A stretch of 64,000 bases of DNA, taken from the IMG/VR virus record IMGVR_UViG_3300004457_000028, positions 1 to 64,000 of that record, one strand, 5' to 3'. This DNA is from a virus. The position numbers and the translations under genes are program-made. A model generated the notes under the pieces. The model was given only the letters and a program-made list of their open reading frames with translations, was not told the origin of the DNA and made no database searches. This document shows, piece after piece, positions 53,259 through 63,710 of the stretch. Numbering within the stretch: position 1 is the first letter of the stretch; each line of letters begins with the position of its first letter.

Positions 53259-54446
53259 ATGCCGAGTGAGAACTATGACTTTGTGCCGTGGGATTCTCCC
53301 GACGACATTGAGAAGTTTGTTCCGGCTCTTTTAGCGGGAGCAAGAGCGTTAGCACCAAAAATAGCAGGTAAACTTGGTGGTATGAAAACAGCAACTGGTG
53401 GTTTTTTACAAGGCGCAAAAAAGAAAATAGGCGATGTCGCCAGTAAAGTTGGTATCAAAGGTGGTGGCGCAGCAACAATTGCTACTGAGGGTGCGGCCAG
53501 TGCTACTAAAACAGCGGCCAGTGCTGCGAATGAAGCAGTAGCGTCTGCTGCCCCTAAACCTGACTTGGGAACAAAGATGCCAACTGCTGAGGTTTCTACT
53601 CCTGAACCACCTGCTGCTGAACCAGCAGTTGAAACTCCTGAACCTACAGAACCAAGTGGGAGTGCTGGTAAGAAGAACGATTACAAAAAAGTCGGTATGC
53701 AATTGGCTCAACAAATGCAAGCAGGTGCTGCTCAAAGAAAACAAGCGCAAGAGCAAAGGGCGGCTGATATGGCTCGCCGTGGTGCATCAGTGCAAACTGG
53801 TGAGGCGATGGATATTGCTTGGCGGTTGTTGAAGCGTGATTTGTCCGAGATGACAGATTATGAAATAGACCGAGCAAGGTTCGCTAATGATAATCCGGAA
53901 CTTCAAAGTGAAGAAAGAACAAGGGCTATGGACAGAATGGCAGAGTTTGCTCGTCAAAATGTCACACCGTTTGATTACGGAGATGAAGTTGAAGAAGCGT
54001 ATGACGATATAGGCGACCAAGACCATTCGGATTATTTCGGTGAAGACATAGACTCTAATGAGTTGTATCAGTATATTTTAGAAAATGCAGGTCAAGAAGC
54101 GGCGCAAAACTATGTTCAACAATACAAAGACGCTCGTGCAAAGTATGGAGGTAATGCCGCAACTATGGGTCAGTTGGATAACTACGGAATAAGTAACCAA
54201 GGTGATGCAAACGACTTCATAGAAAGTCGTGAAAGAATGACAGGTGACATGCGTAACATCATGCCGAATGACGAAACTGTATTTGACGCTTATCCTTATC
54301 CCGAAGGAGTAGTGTATAACAATAAGTTGTCACCTCCGTTTACCACCACTCCTGAAAACGAATCTAATTTTCAAATGAAATATACAGGCGAACCAATGGA
54401 CATCGCCTATCAGTTGTTGAAAAACTGGGAGGGGACTACACAATGA
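53259..54446 (+). CDS. Tagged multi-module protein (Ala/Gly/Lys amphipathic module plus acidic module)
   Basis: 'DDIEK|FVPALLAG', 'GEAMDIAWRLLKR', 'GEPMDIAYQLLKN'. Confidence 0.7.
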   Translation: MPSENYDFVPWDSPDDIEKFVPALLAGARALAPKIAGKLGGMKTATGGFLQGAKKKIGDVASKVGIKGGGAATIATEGAASATKTAASAANEAVASAAPKPDLGTKMPTAEVSTPEPPAAEPAVETPEPTEPSGSAGKKNDYKKVGMQLAQQMQAGAAQRKQAQEQRAADMARRGASVQTGEAMDIAWRLLKRDLSEMTDYEIDRARFANDNPELQSEERTRAMDRMAEFARQNVTPFDYGDEVEEAYDDIGDQDHSDYFGEDIDSNELYQYILENAGQEAAQNYVQQYKDARAKYGGNAATMGQLDNYGISNQGDANDFIESRERMTGDMRNIMPNDETVFDAYPYPEGVVYNNKLSPPFTTTPENESNFQMKYTGEPMDIAYQLLKNWEGTTQ

Positions 54447-54619
54447 CAGCATTTGACAACGCTTGGGATTACCTTGAAAAGAAACTATGCCCGAAAGGTA
54501 AAGCAGCAGCAAAGCGTAAGTTTGATGTTTACCCATCAGCGTATGCAAATGGATATGCTGTGCAAGTTTGTCAAGGTAAAATTGGCGTAGGTAAGAAAAA
54601 GAAGGGGAAAAAGAAATGA
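54443..54619 (+). CDS. 58-aa tagged basic protein (DUF5872-like; not in ORF track)
   Basis: MTAFDNAWDYLEKKLCPKGKAAAKRKFDVYPSAYANGYAVQVCQGK...KKK*; ATGA overlaps at both ends. Confidence 0.75.
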   Translation: MTAFDNAWDYLEKKLCPKGKAAAKRKFDVYPSAYANGYAVQVCQGKIGVGKKKKGKKK

Positions 54620-54927
54620 CACGCTGCACTTGTCATGATGTTCTCATTGTCAAAGACCTGAAAAGGTGGTTTGATGAAAAGTGGGTTGATGTCAGTCGTA
54701 AAGACAAAGACGGTAAACACCCACCATGCGGTAGGAACAAAGCAAAGAAATCCAGTAAGGGTTATCCAAAATGCAGACCAAGTGTAAAGGTCAGCAATAA
54801 AACTCCAAAAACTTCAGGCTCAATGTCAGAAGGACAAAAATCCGCTGCTACAAAACGCAAGCGCTCAAAGAAACAAGGCGTAGGTGGAAAGCCTACTATA
54901 GTCAAAATGGTTGGAGTGATACGATGA
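54616..54927 (+). CDS. Basic phage protein (DUF5872-related 'LKRWFxEKWVD' type)
   Basis: 'LKRWFDEKWVDV...PPCGR...YPKCRP'; highly Lys-rich. Confidence 0.7.
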   Translation: MTRCTCHDVLIVKDLKRWFDEKWVDVSRKDKDGKHPPCGRNKAKKSSKGYPKCRPSVKVSNKTPKTSGSMSEGQKSAATKRKRSKKQGVGGKPTIVKMVGVIR

Positions 54928-55238
54928 CGGCATTTGAGACAGCATGGGATGTTATTGAAAAGGGCAAAAAAAAGTCCAAACCATTCCACGGTTACAATCC
55001 AAACAAGCATAGTAAAAAAGGTGGACTAAATGCCAAAGGTCGTGCTACTGCTAAGCGTGAAACAGGTGCAAACCTCAAACCCCCTGTTACTAAAAAACCA
55101 AGTTCACTCAAACCCGGTAGTAAGTCGGCAAAGCGTCGTAAATCATTTTGTGCTCGTATGAGTGGAATGAAAGGTGCAACTTCTAAAAAGGGCAAACTCA
55201 CTCCTAAAGGTGCATCATTAAAGAGGTGGAACTGTTGA
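54924..55238 (+). CDS. Tagged basic protein (DUF6321-like)
   Basis: 'MTAFETAWDVIEKG'; 'GGLNAKGR...NLKPPV...RRKSFCARM...RWNC'. Confidence 0.75.
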   Translation: MTAFETAWDVIEKGKKKSKPFHGYNPNKHSKKGGLNAKGRATAKRETGANLKPPVTKKPSSLKPGSKSAKRRKSFCARMSGMKGATSKKGKLTPKGASLKRWNC

Positions 55239-56975: not shown

Positions 56976-56976
56976 C

Positions 56977-57070
56977 TTGTCTAACTTGTCCGATGTATTG
57001 TTTACACAATATACTGTATTTACTATTCTTCTAAATGTATAGACTATACAACGGACAACAAGGACAACAC
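56977..57070. repeat. Inverted-repeat/AT-rich element 3 (origin-like)
   Basis: Left arm TTGTCTAACTTGTCCGATGTAT, AT-rich core, right arm ATACAACGGACAACAAGGACAACAC. Confidence 0.7.
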
Positions 57071-57084
57071 CCCCAGTAACCTTT

Positions 57085-57702
57085 ATGATGACCCCCGCAG
57101 TGGACAGACCAGTGGACATTATGGATAATCAAGACCATCACGATGCAGAAATACGCCTCATGGGACTAATTTTGGCTCAAAGCACACTGGTTGGAGTAGC
57201 GGTTGGAATCTTTGACGCAAGGGTTTGGCTAACACAAGACAGTGTTTGGATAAATGGTTTCACTTATGCGATGGGTGCATTCTTTGTTCAAGGTATAGCA
57301 TACTACTTCTTTAAGATGTTCTTTGAGCAAAACCTACAAGAAAAGGTAAGACATGGTAACATGGAAAAGCAAAGGAATAATCAATACAGGAGTATGCAAA
57401 CTCAATTTGATAATCGTAGAGCCGACATGGAAATGCGTATGCAAGAAGCACAACTTGAGCGTGAATTACGCTGGATGGAAAATAACCCCGGTAAGATGCC
57501 GCCAAGTTGGGGTGTTCAGGGTGGTGCTCAATCTATGGTAGGTTTTTACGACCAACAAGGTGGGGCTGCTGCTTCTTTTGACGGTAGTAGGATTCCTACT
57601 CATGAGGCTAAGATTTTACAACCACTTACTCTTGGAGTAGAAGAAGACATACCATTGAAGAAAGATGGCACGCCTGATAAAAGATTTGAAAAGAAATCTT
57701 GA
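57085..57702 (+). CDS. Membrane protein (2 TM helices plus coiled coil)
   Basis: Hydrophobic 'LMGLILAQSTLVGVAVGIF' and 'GFTYAMGAFFVQGIAYYFF', then Q/E/R heptads. True start may be 57109 or 57121. Confidence 0.7.
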   Translation: MMTPAVDRPVDIMDNQDHHDAEIRLMGLILAQSTLVGVAVGIFDARVWLTQDSVWINGFTYAMGAFFVQGIAYYFFKMFFEQNLQEKVRHGNMEKQRNNQYRSMQTQFDNRRADMEMRMQEAQLERELRWMENNPGKMPPSWGVQGGAQSMVGFYDQQGGAAASFDGSRIPTHEAKILQPLTLGVEEDIPLKKDGTPDKRFEKKS

Positions 57703-57715
57703 GTGAGGTTTACTC

Positions 57716-57973
57716 ATGGGCCGAATCTTTCGCACTCCTTCTGATGATGCTACTGAAAGCACGCTGCGTGCTATTCACATAGCAAATACCGTTGATAATG
57801 CATACGAAAGAACTTGGGGTTGGGTAAAGACTATCCTTGCCTCCGGTATTACATGTGTAGTAGTAAGTGGTATTGAGTTTTACAATCCTGAGTTCAGTAT
57901 ATACGAAAATACAGTAGACTGGGCCGTTGAAAAACTTGAAGACTTAATCAATTGGTTAAAGTGGTGGGATTGA
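57716..57973 (+). CDS. Small single-pass membrane protein
   Basis: 'WGWVKTILASGITCVVVSGIEF'; amphipathic Trp-rich C-terminus; GAGGT SD. Confidence 0.65.
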   Translation: MGRIFRTPSDDATESTLRAIHIANTVDNAYERTWGWVKTILASGITCVVVSGIEFYNPEFSIYENTVDWAVEKLEDLINWLKWWD

Positions 57974-57976
57974 TTC

Positions 57977-58699
57977 ATGGTAGACCCCGGTGGCACTGCA
58001 TTGGTAGGTGCAGCGATGTGGGGTCAGCATATTTACAATTCATATAAACCAAGAAGAGTCGGTATCTACGGAGCACCTCTCGTTGGTAAAACAACTCTTG
58101 ACCGCTATCTTACTACTCCGGGTGAAATGGAAGAGATAGAAGAAGAAGATAGAACTACTCATAGTCGTATACTGAAATTAGGTAATTACAGAATGCCTAA
58201 ACCAACAAGAAAAAGAATTGGTTGGAATGGTGAGAAGAGAGTCGTATATTCATCAGACATAGGTGGACAAGAGAGGTTTTGGAATCTTTGGATTGAAGAC
58301 ATGGTAACTCGTGGAGTAGAAGCCGTAGTTTACATTTTTGACGATAGGGCTTTCAAAGGTGGAGATGAAAGCATAAAACAAATTGCTGGTTTTCGTTATC
58401 TTGTAGATTGTTTAATACAAAGAAATTATCGCTATCGTTCAGTATGGGCGAGATTCAAAGGTAGAAAGTATCACCCAAGAGTGGTTATGCTTGTAGCGAA
58501 TAAAGCAGATAGATTCTTTGATGAAACCGCATCTAAACTTTGGCATGAGGGTCGTATAGGTGAACATAAGATTTTTGACCCATTTAGAGATGACTTAATC
58601 AGGCTACAAAAAGCAGGTATTCCTACTCGTAGGTCATTCATGGCTACAAGGATTGGATGGAATGTAGAAAAGACAATGGTGAGCCTTTTAACATCTTGA
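57977..58699 (+). CDS. Ras-superfamily small GTPase (Arf/Sar/Rab-like)
   Basis: G1 'GAPLVGKTT', G3 'DIGGQERFWNLW', 'AVVYIFD', G4 'ANKAD', G5-like 'MATRIGWNVE'; hydrophobic N-terminal helix. Confidence 0.9.
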   Translation: MVDPGGTALVGAAMWGQHIYNSYKPRRVGIYGAPLVGKTTLDRYLTTPGEMEEIEEEDRTTHSRILKLGNYRMPKPTRKRIGWNGEKRVVYSSDIGGQERFWNLWIEDMVTRGVEAVVYIFDDRAFKGGDESIKQIAGFRYLVDCLIQRNYRYRSVWARFKGRKYHPRVVMLVANKADRFFDETASKLWHEGRIGEHKIFDPFRDDLIRLQKAGIPTRRSFMATRIGWNVEKTMVSLLTS

Positions 58700-58754
58700 C
58701 CAAAAAAGTGACCCCATAGGTAGCCTTTTGAATAACAACTCTTTCGGTGTAAAT

Positions 58755-58952
58755 ATGTCAAGCAAGAAATCGTCTACTACTTTGGTGTCCACTGGTGGTG
58801 GGAGTCGTAGCCTAAGAACAACTGTTCCTATGTTTATTGTAGAACATTTTGGTCTTACTGCTGGAGATGATGTTAATTGGAGATTTACTGTTCAAGAGGG
58901 ACAGATTGTAGTAGTCATGACACCTACGGCTGAGCAGGTCGTGGTAGAATGA
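58755..58952 (+). CDS. AbrB/SpoVT-type swapped-hairpin DNA-binding protein
   Basis: 'SRSLRTTVPMFIVEHFGLTAGDDVNW'; likely start MSSKK. Confidence 0.75.
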   Translation: MSSKKSSTTLVSTGGGSRSLRTTVPMFIVEHFGLTAGDDVNWRFTVQEGQIVVVMTPTAEQVVVE

Positions 58953-59884
58953 TGATGTTTAACAGACAACCCCAACAAAATCTAAATGAGGCTCAATTGT
59001 CTACTTTGGCTATGCAAGGTAATGAACAACTTACTCAGGCTGCACTTCAAGAAATGTTGATGGCTCAACAAGGAATGCAAGAAGCAGCACAGGCTGGTAA
59101 CATAGAAGTTCCTAAAGTTAATTTTTACCCAAGTCGCCATGCTGACCCACGAAAGGCTCGTAAAAAAGACATCAAGCAAGCATACAAATTACTTCAACCA
59201 GCAAAGCGTTCTATATTCAATCCTATGAGATGGGTATTTGGTCGTAAGTATCGTTACAACAAAGATACAGGAACTTGCGTTGTAGACGGAGCAAATGTTG
59301 CTGAATTGATGAAACATGATAATCTCTATATGCGTATCTGTGACGATGAAACAGGTCGCTCTCTTTGGGAAATGTATTGGCAAAACCCAGTTACTGGTCA
59401 GCCTGAAGCGTTTATTGCTCTTGACAAAGTGACCAGTGGTAAGAAAATGCGAGGGACATACTGCCCTGAACATCTTCATTTGTATCATCTACTCTGTAAA
59501 TGGGAGGCCGAAGAAGACAAACAGAATGAAATGAACCCAAGTCGTCTCCGTGATAAAGTGAAAAGAGGAGTCTCAATTGTTACTGTCCCTGTATCTTCTG
59601 TAAAAAAGAAAGACCCTACACCTGCTATGCTAACAAAATACGAACCGTTCTTTGCTGAACTTGAAAGAGATGCTGGTAGAACAAAGGGAATCAATCTAAT
59701 CCATTATGCTAACCCAGCCACTGGTCAAAACGATATTACCATGGTTGTATTTGACCTTCGTATATTTCAATTAGAACTTCAACAAATGAACATGCCAACG
59801 CAAGCGTTTCAAGAATTACTTAATGTTGAGAATACCAAAATGCAACAGAACCTTGATGGTGCAGTAGCGGTTGGGGAGGCATGA
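58949..59884 (+). CDS. Hypothetical protein (Q-rich N-terminus, Cys/His core)
   Basis: 311-aa coupled ORF; 'CPEHLH'. Confidence 0.7.
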   Translation: MMMFNRQPQQNLNEAQLSTLAMQGNEQLTQAALQEMLMAQQGMQEAAQAGNIEVPKVNFYPSRHADPRKARKKDIKQAYKLLQPAKRSIFNPMRWVFGRKYRYNKDTGTCVVDGANVAELMKHDNLYMRICDDETGRSLWEMYWQNPVTGQPEAFIALDKVTSGKKMRGTYCPEHLHLYHLLCKWEAEEDKQNEMNPSRLRDKVKRGVSIVTVPVSSVKKKDPTPAMLTKYEPFFAELERDAGRTKGINLIHYANPATGQNDITMVVFDLRIFQLELQQMNMPTQAFQELLNVENTKMQQNLDGAVAVGEA

Positions 59885-59888
59885 TACG

Positions 59889-60560
59889 ATGTTCAATCTT
59901 GGCGCACAACAACAACAACCAAACGGATTAAATCTCTCAGCAACTGGGGGAGGAATGGGTTACGGTATGCAGCAACCGCAAAGCGGATTTAGTCTTGGAG
60001 CACAACCGATGCAACAACAAATGCAGCAGCAGAATCAAGGATTTATGGCTGGTATGATGGGTAGTGCGGGGATGACACCTCAGCAACAAATGATGATGCA
60101 GAACGGACAAGTCACTCCTCCATCAGAAATGGAACTTATGAATGCTCTATTACAATCTCAAAATCCTATTCATCGTTTTATCAAAGACGGAGGGCTTGGT
60201 AGTTTGATAGATTTGATTGCAGCGACAACCAGCCTAAGTATGCTAAACATTCTTAAAAACGCCACATTCGTTATTGATGAAGACGAGGGTGGTATGAAAC
60301 TTGACCCTGCAACATTATCTTCTGACTTACAAACCCTAAGCATTGAAAATGTGAGTATGGTCTTGAATAACATGGTTGCTCAAAGCAATCAAAAGTTCCA
60401 AGAGGCTGAAATGCAAAGACAACAGATTATTGCTATGTCTCAACAATCAATGATGGGTGGGGCGTTAAGTGCTGCTTTACAAGATGAAGGTATGATGAAC
60501 AAAATGGGCGGCGGAATTGGTAGCGTTGCTCGTGGGCTTATAGGACTACCAAGAAACTGA
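59889..60560 (+). CDS. Q/M/G-rich low-complexity protein with a helical core
   Basis: Likely start MFNLGAQQQQ after a GGAGG SD. Confidence 0.7.
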   Translation: MFNLGAQQQQPNGLNLSATGGGMGYGMQQPQSGFSLGAQPMQQQMQQQNQGFMAGMMGSAGMTPQQQMMMQNGQVTPPSEMELMNALLQSQNPIHRFIKDGGLGSLIDLIAATTSLSMLNILKNATFVIDEDEGGMKLDPATLSSDLQTLSIENVSMVLNNMVAQSNQKFQEAEMQRQQIIAMSQQSMMGGALSAALQDEGMMNKMGGGIGSVARGLIGLPRN

Positions 60561-60569
60561 GGCGATATA

Positions 60570-60821
60570 ATGGTGCAATCGGGTAGTATGAAAGATTACG
60601 GAATGAGAGTAAGTGAAGCGAGTAGTAGTATTTTTGCTCCAAGTAGAAACATCATTACTGAAATGATTATGGTTCAGTTTATTGCAGTAATTATGGCTTG
60701 CACAGGTATTCTAATTTTCAAAGGTGACGAAATGAGCAGCGGGGATGTAAGCGTCTTTGTTGTAGGTATTTTTGGAGCGTTTATTTTCTTAACCACTCTT
60801 TACTCAAGAATCACTCGCTGA
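60570..60821 (+). CDS. Small 2-TM membrane protein (holin-like topology)
   Basis: 'MIMVQFIAVIMACTGILIF' and 'VSVFVVGIFGAFIFLTTLY', ending in a basic tail. Confidence 0.65.
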   Translation: MVQSGSMKDYGMRVSEASSSIFAPSRNIITEMIMVQFIAVIMACTGILIFKGDEMSSGDVSVFVVGIFGAFIFLTTLYSRITR

Positions 60822-61064
60822 CCACTTGTTTATCGGGCATGAAACTGATGGCGCAAGAGCCTTAATTTTCATGACGCAACTACACAGTCGGCAAGTCCCC
60901 ATTCTTTTTTGCATGTAAGGACATTGATAACACTCATCAAGTCTCGCCATGTATAGTTTTTTAGAGACTCTGTTGCCTTTCAGTGCATCTTTTGATGCTT
61001 TGATTAAATCTTTACCACGCTCTTTGAGAGGTTGCTTTGGAACTCTCTCGTAAGGTGGGAGCAT
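60804..61064 (-). CDS. DUF6171-like Cys-rich protein
   Basis: 'RLDECYQC...CRLCSC.MKIK....SCPINKW'; partial promoter motif TTAAAGCAGCA at about 61106-61116. Confidence 0.65.
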   Translation of the reverse strand: MLPPYERVPKQPLKERGKDLIKASKDALKGNRVSKKLYMARLDECYQCPYMQKRMGTCRLCSCVMKIKALAPSVSCPINKWSASDS

Positions 61065-61123: not shown

Positions 61124-61807
61124 ATGGCGGAGGGTAACCCAGTATCAAAACGGTCTTGCCCTTTGTGTCAGCACCCAAGTCGTGAAGACTTAGAGAAGGG
61201 ACTCCTTGATGGTGAAATCTCTTCTAAACAATTAGACAAAGACATGGGCTGGAGGCTGAACACAACAGACCGTCATTTTCGTAATCACATGGGTCAGTTC
61301 CACATGGCTTCTAATCCTCAGTGCAAAGTTTGTGCTGATGTAGGTAGGGCTGATTTTGAGCGTCGTTATTTTGAAGATGGCTCTCAGTCAGAAACAATTG
61401 CTGAAGAACTTGGTATTGCTGAGTCATCTGTTTATCATCACATGAAACATCACTTTCAACCGTTAGTTCAAAGAAGTGCGGCTGCTGAGATTACATTAGT
61501 CGTAGGAGAAGAGGTTAATGCGCTCAGGTCAAATGTTGAACTCCTCAATGTTAAATTGTCTGAATTGCTCAATGAGGGTAGTGTCCATGAAGATGGGTTT
61601 GTTAGAGATGCGGTGTCACTGCACAAAGAAGTCAGAGAATCAATAAAGGACTTGTTAAAGATGAACGAACAGTGGAGTCCTACATCTGAAAACAGTCAAG
61701 TCAATAATACAATTAACATCCTCAAGGTTGAACTTGGTAAAGAAAGCCCTGACTCTTGGGCGAGGATTCGTAACTCTTTGTTAGAACATGCGGGTGACAT
61801 AAATTGA
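61124..61807 (+). CDS. Zn-finger/HTH plus coiled-coil protein, terminase-small-subunit-like
   Basis: Two repeats of 'CxxC...HTH...H..H' ('CPLCQHP', 'CKVC', 'IAEELGIAESSVYHHMKHH'), then helices and 'NNTINI'. Confidence 0.45.
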   Translation: MAEGNPVSKRSCPLCQHPSREDLEKGLLDGEISSKQLDKDMGWRLNTTDRHFRNHMGQFHMASNPQCKVCADVGRADFERRYFEDGSQSETIAEELGIAESSVYHHMKHHFQPLVQRSAAAEITLVVGEEVNALRSNVELLNVKLSELLNEGSVHEDGFVRDAVSLHKEVRESIKDLLKMNEQWSPTSENSQVNNTINILKVELGKESPDSWARIRNSLLEHAGDIN

Positions 61808-62205
61808 TGCCAGTTCCTGTTCCTGATTTGCTACAAATGACCCATCCGGGTTATGCGCTGGTAGAGCGTGACTCGCCTGTATCAGCGTATAATGTTCCAA
61901 TCTATCTTGATTTTTGTCGTTGTATTACAATGAGATTTGAGCACTACGGTGAGTTAGAGATTACTCCACCTGACCTTTTCAAATTACTCACAAAGTCTTT
62001 TGAAACTGTTTTTGAAGATGATGACCCCGTTACATTTTTCCCAGCATATCATCTTATACCTCGTTTACTTGAAGAGTTTGAGCACACCATAAAAAATATG
62101 ACATCTGCATTTGAAGATAGTCCGAGAATTATGTTGTTCTATAGAAAAATAAGTCAAAAACTGCGACAGTGTTTTGAACATCATATACAGGGGGATAACA
62201 CATGA
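61804..62205 (+). CDS. Hypothetical protein
   Basis: Coupled ORF. Confidence 0.55.
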   Translation: MMPVPVPDLLQMTHPGYALVERDSPVSAYNVPIYLDFCRCITMRFEHYGELEITPPDLFKLLTKSFETVFEDDDPVTFFPAYHLIPRLLEEFEHTIKNMTSAFEDSPRIMLFYRKISQKLRQCFEHHIQGDNT

Positions 62206-63710
62206 CGGGTGGTATGATGGGGCGAACCTCCGACACGAGGATATACAATCCTCGCTCCGAGTCCTCTGAAATGTTCAGGGCTAATCATGAAGATGAAAGG
62301 CCACCAAGCGGTATGGAGGATGGCCGAGACAAAGAAGCACGCAAAGATAAGCGTCAAGCCAAGAAAGAGGCTGAGGAAAAAGAGGATAAAAAAATCCGTC
62401 ACATCAAAGTCCGTTCACATCACCTTGGCCTTGACAGTGAAAAATCTATTGAGGATAAAGACGAGGTAGATGAAGAAGAAGAGAAGTTCAAACCTCGTGG
62501 TTCAGTTGATAACCCATCTGACCAAACTATGCCAAGCGGCACTGGTGGATTCATGACGAGCCTCGCTATGGGTGCTAAAGGGCCGGGTGCTGCTCGTGGT
62601 GAAATGATTCAGATGTCTGAGCCTATGCAAATGGCTAATCAGTTGTTGAAAGAAGTTACTCCTTACAACGAGTCGCCATTTCCTCATGGAGTTGCACCTT
62701 TAGAGGATGTTTCATGTCCTCATTGTGGGGATAAACTTGAAGGAACATATAGAGAACTTCATACTAACGACCCATTGGTTGAACTCTATTGTAGGACTTG
62801 TGATATTTACGATGATTCTTCTGTGGATAATTATAGTAGTAGTTCACTAAAGTTAAATCCACCAATTATCCAAAAAGGTGAACCAATGGACATCGCTTGG
62901 CAACTATTGAAATCAAAAAAAACGACTGCTAAACGCAGAAAAGAAGAAGGGTATTCAAAGTGGCGACCATCTACAGGACAATTTGAACGCCCAAAAGGAG
63001 GCGGTGACCCTCGTAACGCCACATCAAGGCGTGCAAAGAACATCAGTCGTAATCTCCCGTTAGGTAGAAAGACTGGACTCATGAGGCCGCATCTTTCAGT
63101 TGAGTTTTCTCACCGAGGTCTTGCGAGTAAACAACCAATGAGTAAAGACCCACAAAAATACGGTGCTTATCTTGCATCTCAAGAGGCTCGTAAACTACAA
63201 GGTGGTGTAAGAAGCACTACGACACCACACATGAGACACAGCCAACGCTCATTCATATCAGGTCAAACTGGTGGTGGTCGTTTGACAAACACTCTACAAT
63301 ACCCTCGTGTCCCAAGACCACGACTACACGCAGTTCGTGCTCCAAGTATTCAACCACCTAAAATGAAGATGCCCCACTTAGCACGACCTAAGATGCCGGG
63401 TATGGTGACAATGAGTGAAGATATTCCTCAACACAGTGATATTCTCAAAGCAGGTAATGCATATCAAGCAGCATTGATGCGAATTGCTCTCAAAGAGATT
63501 CGTGAATTGATGCGTGAAAAGAAAGACAAGGATAAGAAAACAAAGGGAAAGGGGAATCCTGATGTTGCTGGTGCTGCGAGTAGTCTACCAAATTACGAAG
63601 CAAATAATCCTAAGACAGCAACTCGCCCCGAAGGTGGCACTGAAGATGAAAACGACTCACGCCTTTGGGGATTAGCCCCCGGCGATATTGCGGGGAGTGG
63701 GCGGATTTGA
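62202..63710 (+). CDS. Tagged multi-module protein (charged module, Zn-ribbon module, basic modules)
   Basis: 'SEPMQMANQLLKE' - CPHC..CRTC - 'GEPMDIAWQLLKS' - basic region - 'HSDILKA'. Confidence 0.7.
   Translation: MTGGMMGRTSDTRIYNPRSESSEMFRANHEDERPPSGMEDGRDKEARKDKRQAKKEAEEKEDKKIRHIKVRSHHLGLDSEKSIEDKDEVDEEEEKFKPRGSVDNPSDQTMPSGTGGFMTSLAMGAKGPGAARGEMIQMSEPMQMANQLLKEVTPYNESPFPHGVAPLEDVSCPHCGDKLEGTYRELHTNDPLVELYCRTCDIYDDSSVDNYSSSSLKLNPPIIQKGEPMDIAWQLLKSKKTTAKRRKEEGYSKWRPSTGQFERPKGGGDPRNATSRRAKNISRNLPLGRKTGLMRPHLSVEFSHRGLASKQPMSKDPQKYGAYLASQEARKLQGGVRSTTTPHMRHSQRSFISGQTGGGRLTNTLQYPRVPRPRLHAVRAPSIQPPKMKMPHLARPKMPGMVTMSEDIPQHSDILKAGNAYQAALMRIALKEIRELMREKKDKDKKTKGKGNPDVAGAASSLPNYEANNPKTATRPEGGTEDENDSRLWGLAPGDIAGSGRI

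Follow-up and report, generated by a model that had tools for sequence, protein, structure and literature searches.

Magroviruses are tailed viruses of the marine group II archaea (PMC5434244). Here, we describe a seven-gene cassette built around an Arf-like small GTPase in a stretch of 64,000 nucleotides, called the window below, which comprises the first 64 kb of IMG/VR virus record IMGVR_UViG_3300004457_000028. The source record is 103,294 bp long, with a CheckV completeness of 95%, and its gene content, including a thermosome-type chaperonin, a family B DNA polymerase and an SNF2 helicase in the window, agrees with the published description of magroviruses (PMC5434244). Seven plus-strand open reading frames (ORFs) lie nearly end to end at 57085-60821 and encode, in order, a coiled-coil protein with two transmembrane (TM) helices, a 1-TM protein, the GTPase, a SpoVT/AbrB-like protein, an orphan of 311 residues (p311), a Gln/Met/Gly-rich protein and a small 2-TM protein (Table 1). 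An initial annotation of this DNA had proposed seven co-oriented ORFs with 2-TM and 1-TM proteins upstream of the GTPase and a 2-TM protein downstream; all seven were found where it had placed them, and the hydropathy peaks agree with its TM assignments. We are highly confident that this is a real, conserved and virus-specific GTPase operon.

Table 1. Features of the locus in nucleotide positions of the source record, with the motifs of the GTPase in residues.
Feature	Position	Strand	Remarks
Intergenic leader	56976-57084	+	109 bp; AT-rich core with TTGTCC / GGACAA-type inverted repeats on either side
2-TM coiled-coil protein	57085-57702	+	205 aa
1-TM protein	57716-57973	+	85 aa
Arf-like small GTPase	57977-58699	+	240 aa
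G1 of GTPase	residues 32-39		GAPLVGKT
G2 of GTPase	Thr60		within RTxH motif
G3 / switch II of GTPase	residues 94-105		DIGGQERFWNLW; DxxG at 94-97
G4 of GTPase	residues 175-178		NKAD
G5 of GTPase	residues 222-231		MATRIGWNVE; SA-type motif at 222-224
SpoVT/AbrB-like protein	58728-58952	+	74 aa; probable start 58755; accessory member
Orphan p311	58949-59884	+	311 aa
Gln/Met/Gly-rich protein	59871-60560	+	229 aa; probable start 59889
2-TM protein	60570-60821	+	83 aa; short basic C-terminus
DUF6171 / phrog_13558 gene	60804-61064	-	Cys-rich; convergent, ends the cassette block
227-aa protein	61124-61807		two Cys pairs and a helix-turn-helix (HTH); weak GerE/HTH_20 matches
Large terminase	67.2-68.7 kb	+
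Portal	71.0-72.8 kb (71013-72794)	+
Prohead protease	79.9-81.3 kb	+
Major capsid protein	81.3-82.5 kb	+

Conservation of the cassette

The cassette was compared across a close set of 80 IMG/VR loci and three distant lineages (L082/L083, L174 and L096). Gene order and strand are identical in all 80 close loci, every one of which has the 1-TM, p311 and Gln/Met-rich genes; the downstream 2-TM gene is present in 79, the upstream 2-TM gene in 78 and the AbrB-like gene in 67. Median gaps between successive genes are 9, 3, 28, 2, 0 and 4 nt, and the 3 nt between the end of the 1-TM gene and the start of the GTPase gene range from -8 to 12 across these loci. A five-gene core (2-TM coiled-coil, 1-TM, GTPase, p311 and Gln/Met-rich) is kept in four lineages, down to 32% identity of the GTPase, and the synteny of the GTPase with the TM genes, a premise of the initial annotation, holds in all 80 close loci and in the three distant lineages.

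The core is present in L082 and L083 (38% GTPase identity), directly follows the thermosome gene in L174, and in L096 (32% GTPase identity) follows the major capsid gene by 1.2 kb, lying between that gene and phrog_17057 / connector-region genes, where a p311 homologue is recognised by hhalign (probability 95%, E 4.7e-8). No AbrB-like ORF was found between the GTPase and p311 genes of L082, L083, L096 or L174; a counterpart of the 83-aa 2-TM gene is present in L082 and L083, and none was found immediately following the Gln/Met-rich gene in L096 or L174. The cassette moves as a block whose position differs among lineages, and its neighbours, where identified, are late or structural genes. Ratios of nonsynonymous to synonymous substitution rates (dN/dS) are 0.07-0.13 for all cassette genes. 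The GTPase gene, the most conserved of the core, has a dN/dS of ~0.07 against its 13 closest relatives, a value that is only approximate because synonymous sites are near saturation, and on this ratio it is under strong purifying selection.

A virus-encoded Arf-like GTPase

Motifs G1 to G5 are all present in canonical order, which places the protein among the Ras-superfamily small GTPases (P-loop, TRAFAC class). The complete G domain claimed at the outset could thus be read motif by motif, and it is conserved: the key residues of G1-G5 are unchanged in an alignment of relatives 23-94% identical, and G32, G37, K38, D94, G97, N175 and K176 are invariant in members 23-84% identical. An AlphaFold2 (AF2) model of middling confidence (predicted local distance difference test (pLDDT) 63.7, predicted template modelling score (pTM) 0.71) has six strands and five helices in the order b1-a1-b2-b3-a2-b4-a3-b5-a4-b6-a5, with two extra helices; its insertions lengthen switch I and add one helix ahead of beta5 and one following G4. 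Foldseek matched Rab, Rho and Ras structures at E ~2e-7, and VIA exhaustive structure comparison matched solved small GTPases at Z 12-13 over 154-175 residues (root-mean-square deviation 3.0-4.3). The search for longer, fused forms of the GTPase gave none, which counts as weak evidence.

The family profile, compared with the PDB, has the Asgard GerdArfR1 as its top match (E 1.8e-8), in an alignment that starts in the N-terminal helix, followed by Arl8A/B at 1e-5 to 4e-4 and by Rab33 and KRas at ~1e-3; the Arl8 alignment includes the switch II stretch DIGGQERFWNLW. The window protein has an Arf-type switch II (DxGGQ...W) and a P-loop ending in GKTT, and these two features and the profile match agree with the Arf-like affiliation given in the initial annotation. 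In the structure comparison the top group, tied within Z 1, consists of Rag, Arf6, Gs-alpha, SRbeta, Arl13B, Arl2 and Sar1 (Z 12-13), with Rabs ~1 lower. Single GTPase sequences score above no Pfam threshold. For PF00025 (Arf) the window protein has no match at E up to 1, and 7 of 13 members match only at E 0.005 or worse, below the gathering score; weak Pfam matches among the 13 are to MMR_HSR1 (nine members), Roc (eight), Arf (seven) and SRbeta (PF09439, two). Because the Arf threshold was missed and the inserts are large, the GTPase is, by sequence comparison, Arf-like but a separate and very divergent family. Some members carry the automatic Joint Genome Institute (JGI) label 'GTPase SAR1 family protein'.

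Measured against Arf proteins (GerdArfR1, PDB 8OUN/8OUM, bioRxiv 10.1101/2024.02.28.582541; Arl8), the viral GTPase shares the GKTT end of G1, a switch II of the type DxGGQ..F/R..W, a G5 of the type ATxxGxxVxE and an N-terminal hydrophobic/amphipathic extension of like length. It differs in having ~19 extra switch I residues and two further inserts, in lacking the Trp before the G3 Asp, in a switch II Gln that varies in distant lineages, in having no known guanine nucleotide exchange factor (GEF) or GTPase-activating protein (GAP) as a neighbour, and in occurring solely in viruses with a euryarchaeal host. By protein-language-model features, its nearest named clusters consist of bacterial G-domain proteins, with PF00025 as the commonest Pfam label, and Euryarchaeota have the small GTPase ArvA (PMC10927574), so the earlier description of such GTPases as typical of eukaryotes and Asgard archaea was overstated. 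An MglA-MglB polarity switch was rejected: the Roadblock/LC7 partner PF03259, for which the initial annotation had likewise seen no gene, has no match in the whole 103-kb record, in a search to which controls respond.

In every lineage 23-38 residues precede beta1, consisting of a hydrophobic stretch and then an aromatic/basic amphipathic turn. This N-terminal segment is kept in all lineages though its own sequence is not conserved, and it aligns with the GerdArfR1 helix in the profile match. The extension of the window protein has 25 residues, with a best 12-residue Kyte-Doolittle (KD) hydropathy of 1.0; one member, P0202, reaches TM-helix hydropathy (best 19-residue KD 1.78) and no other does. 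What had been annotated as a hydrophobic N-terminal helix has a clear hydrophobic or amphipathic character in distant relatives and moderate hydrophobicity only in the window protein, where the model leaves it disordered. It is from this segment alone that binding of the GTPase to membranes is inferred.

A word-indexed search found 473 relatives, the best 120 of which are 72-94% identical and come from marine metagenomes, on contigs of up to 107 kb. An HMMER scan of 1.84 billion representative proteins returned 82 at E 0.001 or better, and IMG/VR holds 155 contigs with the close type and 140 with the 32%-identical type. For full-length distant members with long contigs available, the contigs measure 59-98 kb, and a profile of the most divergent members retrieved four proteins only, none of them cellular. 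Among 301 Poseidoniales genomes, a GTPase or p311 homologue was found only on one viral-length contig, L083 (106,262 bp), which belongs to the Poseidoniales single-cell assembly AG-422-I20 and carries the cassette with its 38%-identical GTPase copy; that a single-cell genome from the presumed host order contains this contig supports the virus-host link. Two short cassette contigs (L081 and L082) are filed under Maricaulis and Parvibaculum metagenome-assembled genomes and are almost certainly mis-binned viral contigs. The P0202, P0157 and P0128 scans of viral or metagenome contigs found nothing, and neither the GTPase nor p311 nor the 2-TM protein is matched in the GenBank phage collection, which may lack near relatives. 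Neither GTPase nor cassette is mentioned in the searchable magrovirus and Poseidoniales-virus papers and supplements. Across the 1.84-billion-protein library and the 301 host-order genomes, the GTPase family is virus-only as judged from homology. Since no homologue was found in those host-order genomes apart from the viral-length contig and the family appears virus-only, a recent capture from the host, which the initial annotation had named as an outcome that would count against it, is rejected.

Partner proteins and genomic setting

The 205-aa protein has TM peaks at residues 25-43 (KD 2.05) and 62-80 (KD 1.26), then a cytoplasmic, Arg/Gln/Met-rich long helix and a disordered tail ending in LKKDGTPDKRY; the same architecture and position recur in L082, L083, L096 and L174. 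The 1-TM protein consists of soluble N-terminal residues 1-36, a TM helix at 37-55 (KD 1.58) and an acidic, Trp-rich C-terminal tail. Its first 36 residues are its most conserved part (M1, F5, T7, E14, N24, E31, G35 and W36 are invariant) and are predicted from the charge distribution to be cytoplasmic, the protein being oriented N-in and C-out. The 83-aa protein has TM peaks at 32-50 (KD 2.5) and 60-78 (KD 2.22) and no match in Pfam or PHROG, described holin families included; by its architecture it is a holin-like candidate.

The AbrB-like protein scores 21.4 bits against PF04014 (cut-off 24.7; E 2.4e-4) and is matched by AbrB structures at E 0.7 only, and 12 of its 16 relatives match PF04014 at E 0.01 or better (best 4.1e-6). 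The AbrB regulator named in the initial annotation is thus supported for the family, with the window protein itself falling below the Pfam cut-off. In the orphan p311, a Gln/Met-rich helix at the N-terminus and a basic helix are accompanied by a Cys...Cys-Pro-x-His-x-His-x-x-His motif, and the C-terminal part is an alpha/beta unit; no match to it was found among PDB sequences, in the Atlas or by Foldseek, and VIA returned helical bundles at Z 6.2 or less, which is noise. The Cys/His motif is invariant in three lineages, but L174 lacks its histidines; a zinc site is thus no constant of the family, and our first reading of p311 as a zinc protein is weakened.

The Gln/Met/Gly-rich protein has a low-complexity N-terminal third (Q 22%, M 17% and G 17% in residues 1-90), a globular middle and a Gly/Met-rich C-terminal tail, with counterparts in L082, L083, L096 and L174. 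It contains the top Q+M-rich 50-aa window among 108 genome ORFs, and all three cassette proteins with Gln/Met-rich segments are in the top six. This composition was at one point read as an interaction code, an idea since downgraded; because same-strand proteins outside the cassette, the portal among them, share it, it may be a habit of the genome. No cassette protein matches a PADLOC defence family, and a defence or toxin-antitoxin reading was for that reason dropped.

Upstream of the cassette, inverted repeats read directly from the sequence (TTGTCTAACTTGTCCG on the left, CGGACAACAAGGACAA on the right) frame the AT-rich core of the leader, which is a candidate promoter/operator. Downstream, the convergent DUF6171 gene, found in 44 of 80 related loci, overlaps the 83-aa 2-TM gene over the final 18 nt of the latter. 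The 227-aa protein beyond the DUF6171 gene is encoded in every one of the 80 loci as well as in L082 and L083; its dN/dS of 0.047 is the lowest in the neighbourhood, and it gives a faint small-terminase PHROG match (E 0.09). It may be a late regulator or a small terminase. Proteins flanking the cassette (53259-55238 and 62202-63710) contain a recurrent short helix (MTAFDNAWDYLEKK, GEPMDIAWQLLKSKK and similar), of which no clear copy was found in any cassette protein. The large terminase gene lies ~6 kb downstream of the cassette on the same strand, preceded by a 793-aa protein (63665-66046) with a Gln/Met-rich segment near its C-terminus, and the C-terminal tail of the portal protein is Pro/Gln/Met/Gly-rich. 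In this record the phrog_17057 gene comes after the capsid gene region.

Known systems and possible roles

In Sar1-Sec12-COPII and SRbeta-SRalpha, a membrane protein is combined with an Arf-like GTPase that has an N-terminal helix or TM anchor and with recruited soluble partners. The cassette would follow the same logic, and SRbeta (Z 12.6) and Sar1 (Z 12.1) stand in the tied top structural group; no sequence or fold similarity to Sec12, Sec23/24 or SRX was found in any cassette neighbour. Giant-virus small GTPases are recognisable captures of eukaryotic host families, whereas no cellular source could be detected for the present family, which is encoded by a tailed archaeal virus. Like this family, the mimivirus Rab GTPase (PDB 5XC5; structural match at Z 11.6) is a virus-encoded member of the Ras superfamily.

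The small GTPase ArvA of Euryarchaeota has an N-terminal amphipathic helix, is required for vesicle formation and is encoded with ArvB and ArvC (PMC10927574). It is likewise an archaeal small GTPase in an operon, with two small partner genes, and has the cell membrane as its site of action. For comparison, genuine arvABC operons were retrieved from the host phylum (L177:822-2275 and relatives L176-L183), and arvA-arvB-arvC operons occur in about half of the sampled host-phylum genomes; the ArvB marker is found in 95 of 201 genomes of the phylum versus 0 of 61 Poseidoniales genomes. The viral family profile aligns with seven ArvA sequences over 51 columns only (hhalign probability 95%, E 3e-8), covering the P-loop together with switch I, and the N-terminal helix, P-loop and switch I (IPHETRR) of ArvA resemble the viral IPEEERT region. 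The G3 motif is DTPG in ArvA and DxGGQ in the viral GTPase, whose partners are integral membrane proteins and two orphans; ArvB/OapB (PF09846) and ArvC/OapC (Zn-ribbon DUF2072) have no match among the cassette neighbours at E up to 1. Given the missing ArvB/ArvC neighbours, the short alignment and the different G3, membership in the ArvA system was rejected.

With the holin-based lysis cassettes of tailed phages the locus shares small proteins of one or two TM helices, charged tails and compactness, and the lambda lysis genes are placed just upstream of the packaging genes, as this cassette is. The known lysis cassettes have no GTPase, and the archaeal host has no murein wall. Searches of Pfam and PHROG found no holin, endolysin or spanin family in the cassette and its flanks; the initial annotation's statement that the window has no lysis gene holds for that part of it.

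From sequence, structural model, genomic context and analogy we tentatively propose, as a reading somewhat short of probable, that the cassette is a membrane-anchored GTP-switch mechanism. In its GTP state the GTPase would dock to the host membrane from the cytoplasmic side, using its N-terminal segment as Arf, Sar1 and ArvA do, and the two upstream membrane proteins would serve it as receptor or platform. The likeliest contact would be the conserved N-terminus that the 1-TM protein exposes to the cytoplasm, because the gene of that protein is translationally coupled to that of the GTPase. The GTP-bound form would then recruit p311 and the Gln/Met-rich protein into a membrane-bound assembly. 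In the most speculative step this assembly would time or drive a late membrane event, most plausibly progeny release, with the 83-aa 2-TM protein, which two of the four lineages have, as a holin-like candidate. As an outcome, release is the most attractive, since no holin, other player or egress system is known for tailed archaeal viruses, whose egress is uncharacterised (PMC10791045); a role in egress taken by itself is nevertheless doubtful.

Several observations weigh against a GTP-switched membrane mechanism ending in release. The N-terminal segment of the window protein is only weakly hydrophobic (KD 1.0), has a weak amphipathic moment (0.2-0.45) and is disordered in the AF2 model (pLDDT under 50). 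The switch II Gln is replaced by His, Ala or Phe in distant lineages. For the two TM proteins of L096, hhalign gives E 0.022 and 0.35, which is no statistical support, so that architecture and position alone match. Gln/Met-rich disorder is also found in other same-strand proteins, including the portal, and the positions of the cassette in L096 (capsid/connector region) and L174 (beside the thermosome gene) fit morphogenesis about as well as egress. To our knowledge, lysis by tailed phages needs no nucleoside triphosphatase.

Those two positions are among the arguments for a morphogenesis module, in which capsid assembly or DNA packaging would be tethered to the membrane, or the membrane proteins would be ejection or channel parts of the virion loaded under GTPase control. 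The L096 cassette lies between the major capsid and phrog_17057 genes, the latter of which also follows the capsid region in the genome of the window, the L174 cassette follows a thermosome gene, the cassette of the window is flanked by proteins with a shared short helical tag, and the Gln/Met-rich tails extend to the portal and other same-strand proteins. Against this, no cassette protein matches a PHROG structural family or clearly contains the tag, the cassette changes place among lineages, unlike the core head genes, whose order is fixed, and we know of no small GTPase in tailed-virus assembly; we consider such a module unlikely. The cassette might instead take over the host membrane for something other than release (superinfection exclusion, the induction or blocking of vesicles, or a membrane-bound compartment for replication or assembly), the GTPase supplying an activity that the host lacks. 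The distribution of the ArvB marker, present in much of the phylum and not found in Poseidoniales, and the local P-loop and switch I similarity to ArvA would fit, and small membrane proteins are typical exclusion factors. However, the identified neighbours are late or structural and not early genes, exclusion genes usually vary, in contrast to the deep conservation and purifying selection of this cassette, and the cassette contains no ArvB or ArvC homologue, which makes a takeover of this kind quite unlikely.

The GTPase could also be a soluble regulator of translation, transcription or a viral enzyme that merely shares the operon, its N-terminal segment being a protein-binding peptide. That the weak Pfam matches are as often to MMR_HSR1 or Roc as to Arf, that the segment is not strongly hydrophobic in the window protein and that an AbrB-like DNA binder and an HTH protein are encoded nearby all point this way. 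The same two membrane proteins are nonetheless co-inherited with the GTPase in four lineages and at three genomic positions, the 3-nt coupling to the 1-TM gene recurs in 80 loci, the N-terminal segment of P0202 has the hydropathy of a TM helix and the AbrB gene is dispensable in three lineages; a soluble regulator is very unlikely. At the other extreme, the membrane-anchored switch may be extended to a minimal, self-contained membrane-remodelling machine of the Arf/Sar type that deforms or ruptures the archaeal membrane to release tailed virions, composed of membrane receptors, a GTPase with an insertable helix, p311 as adaptor and a self-associating Gln/Met-rich protein. This is improbable; if true, it would give tailed archaeal viruses their first known egress system, and prokaryotic viruses an analogue of coat-driven membrane scission.

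With this family, the Arf-like GTPases found beyond eukaryotes and Asgard archaea gain a virus-only branch, and ArvA gains a viral counterpart in viruses of an order in whose searched genomes the ArvB marker was not found. With a nucleotide switch amid small membrane proteins, the cassette is directly testable, and it is an undescribed candidate for how magroviruses may act on, or leave through, the membrane of their host.

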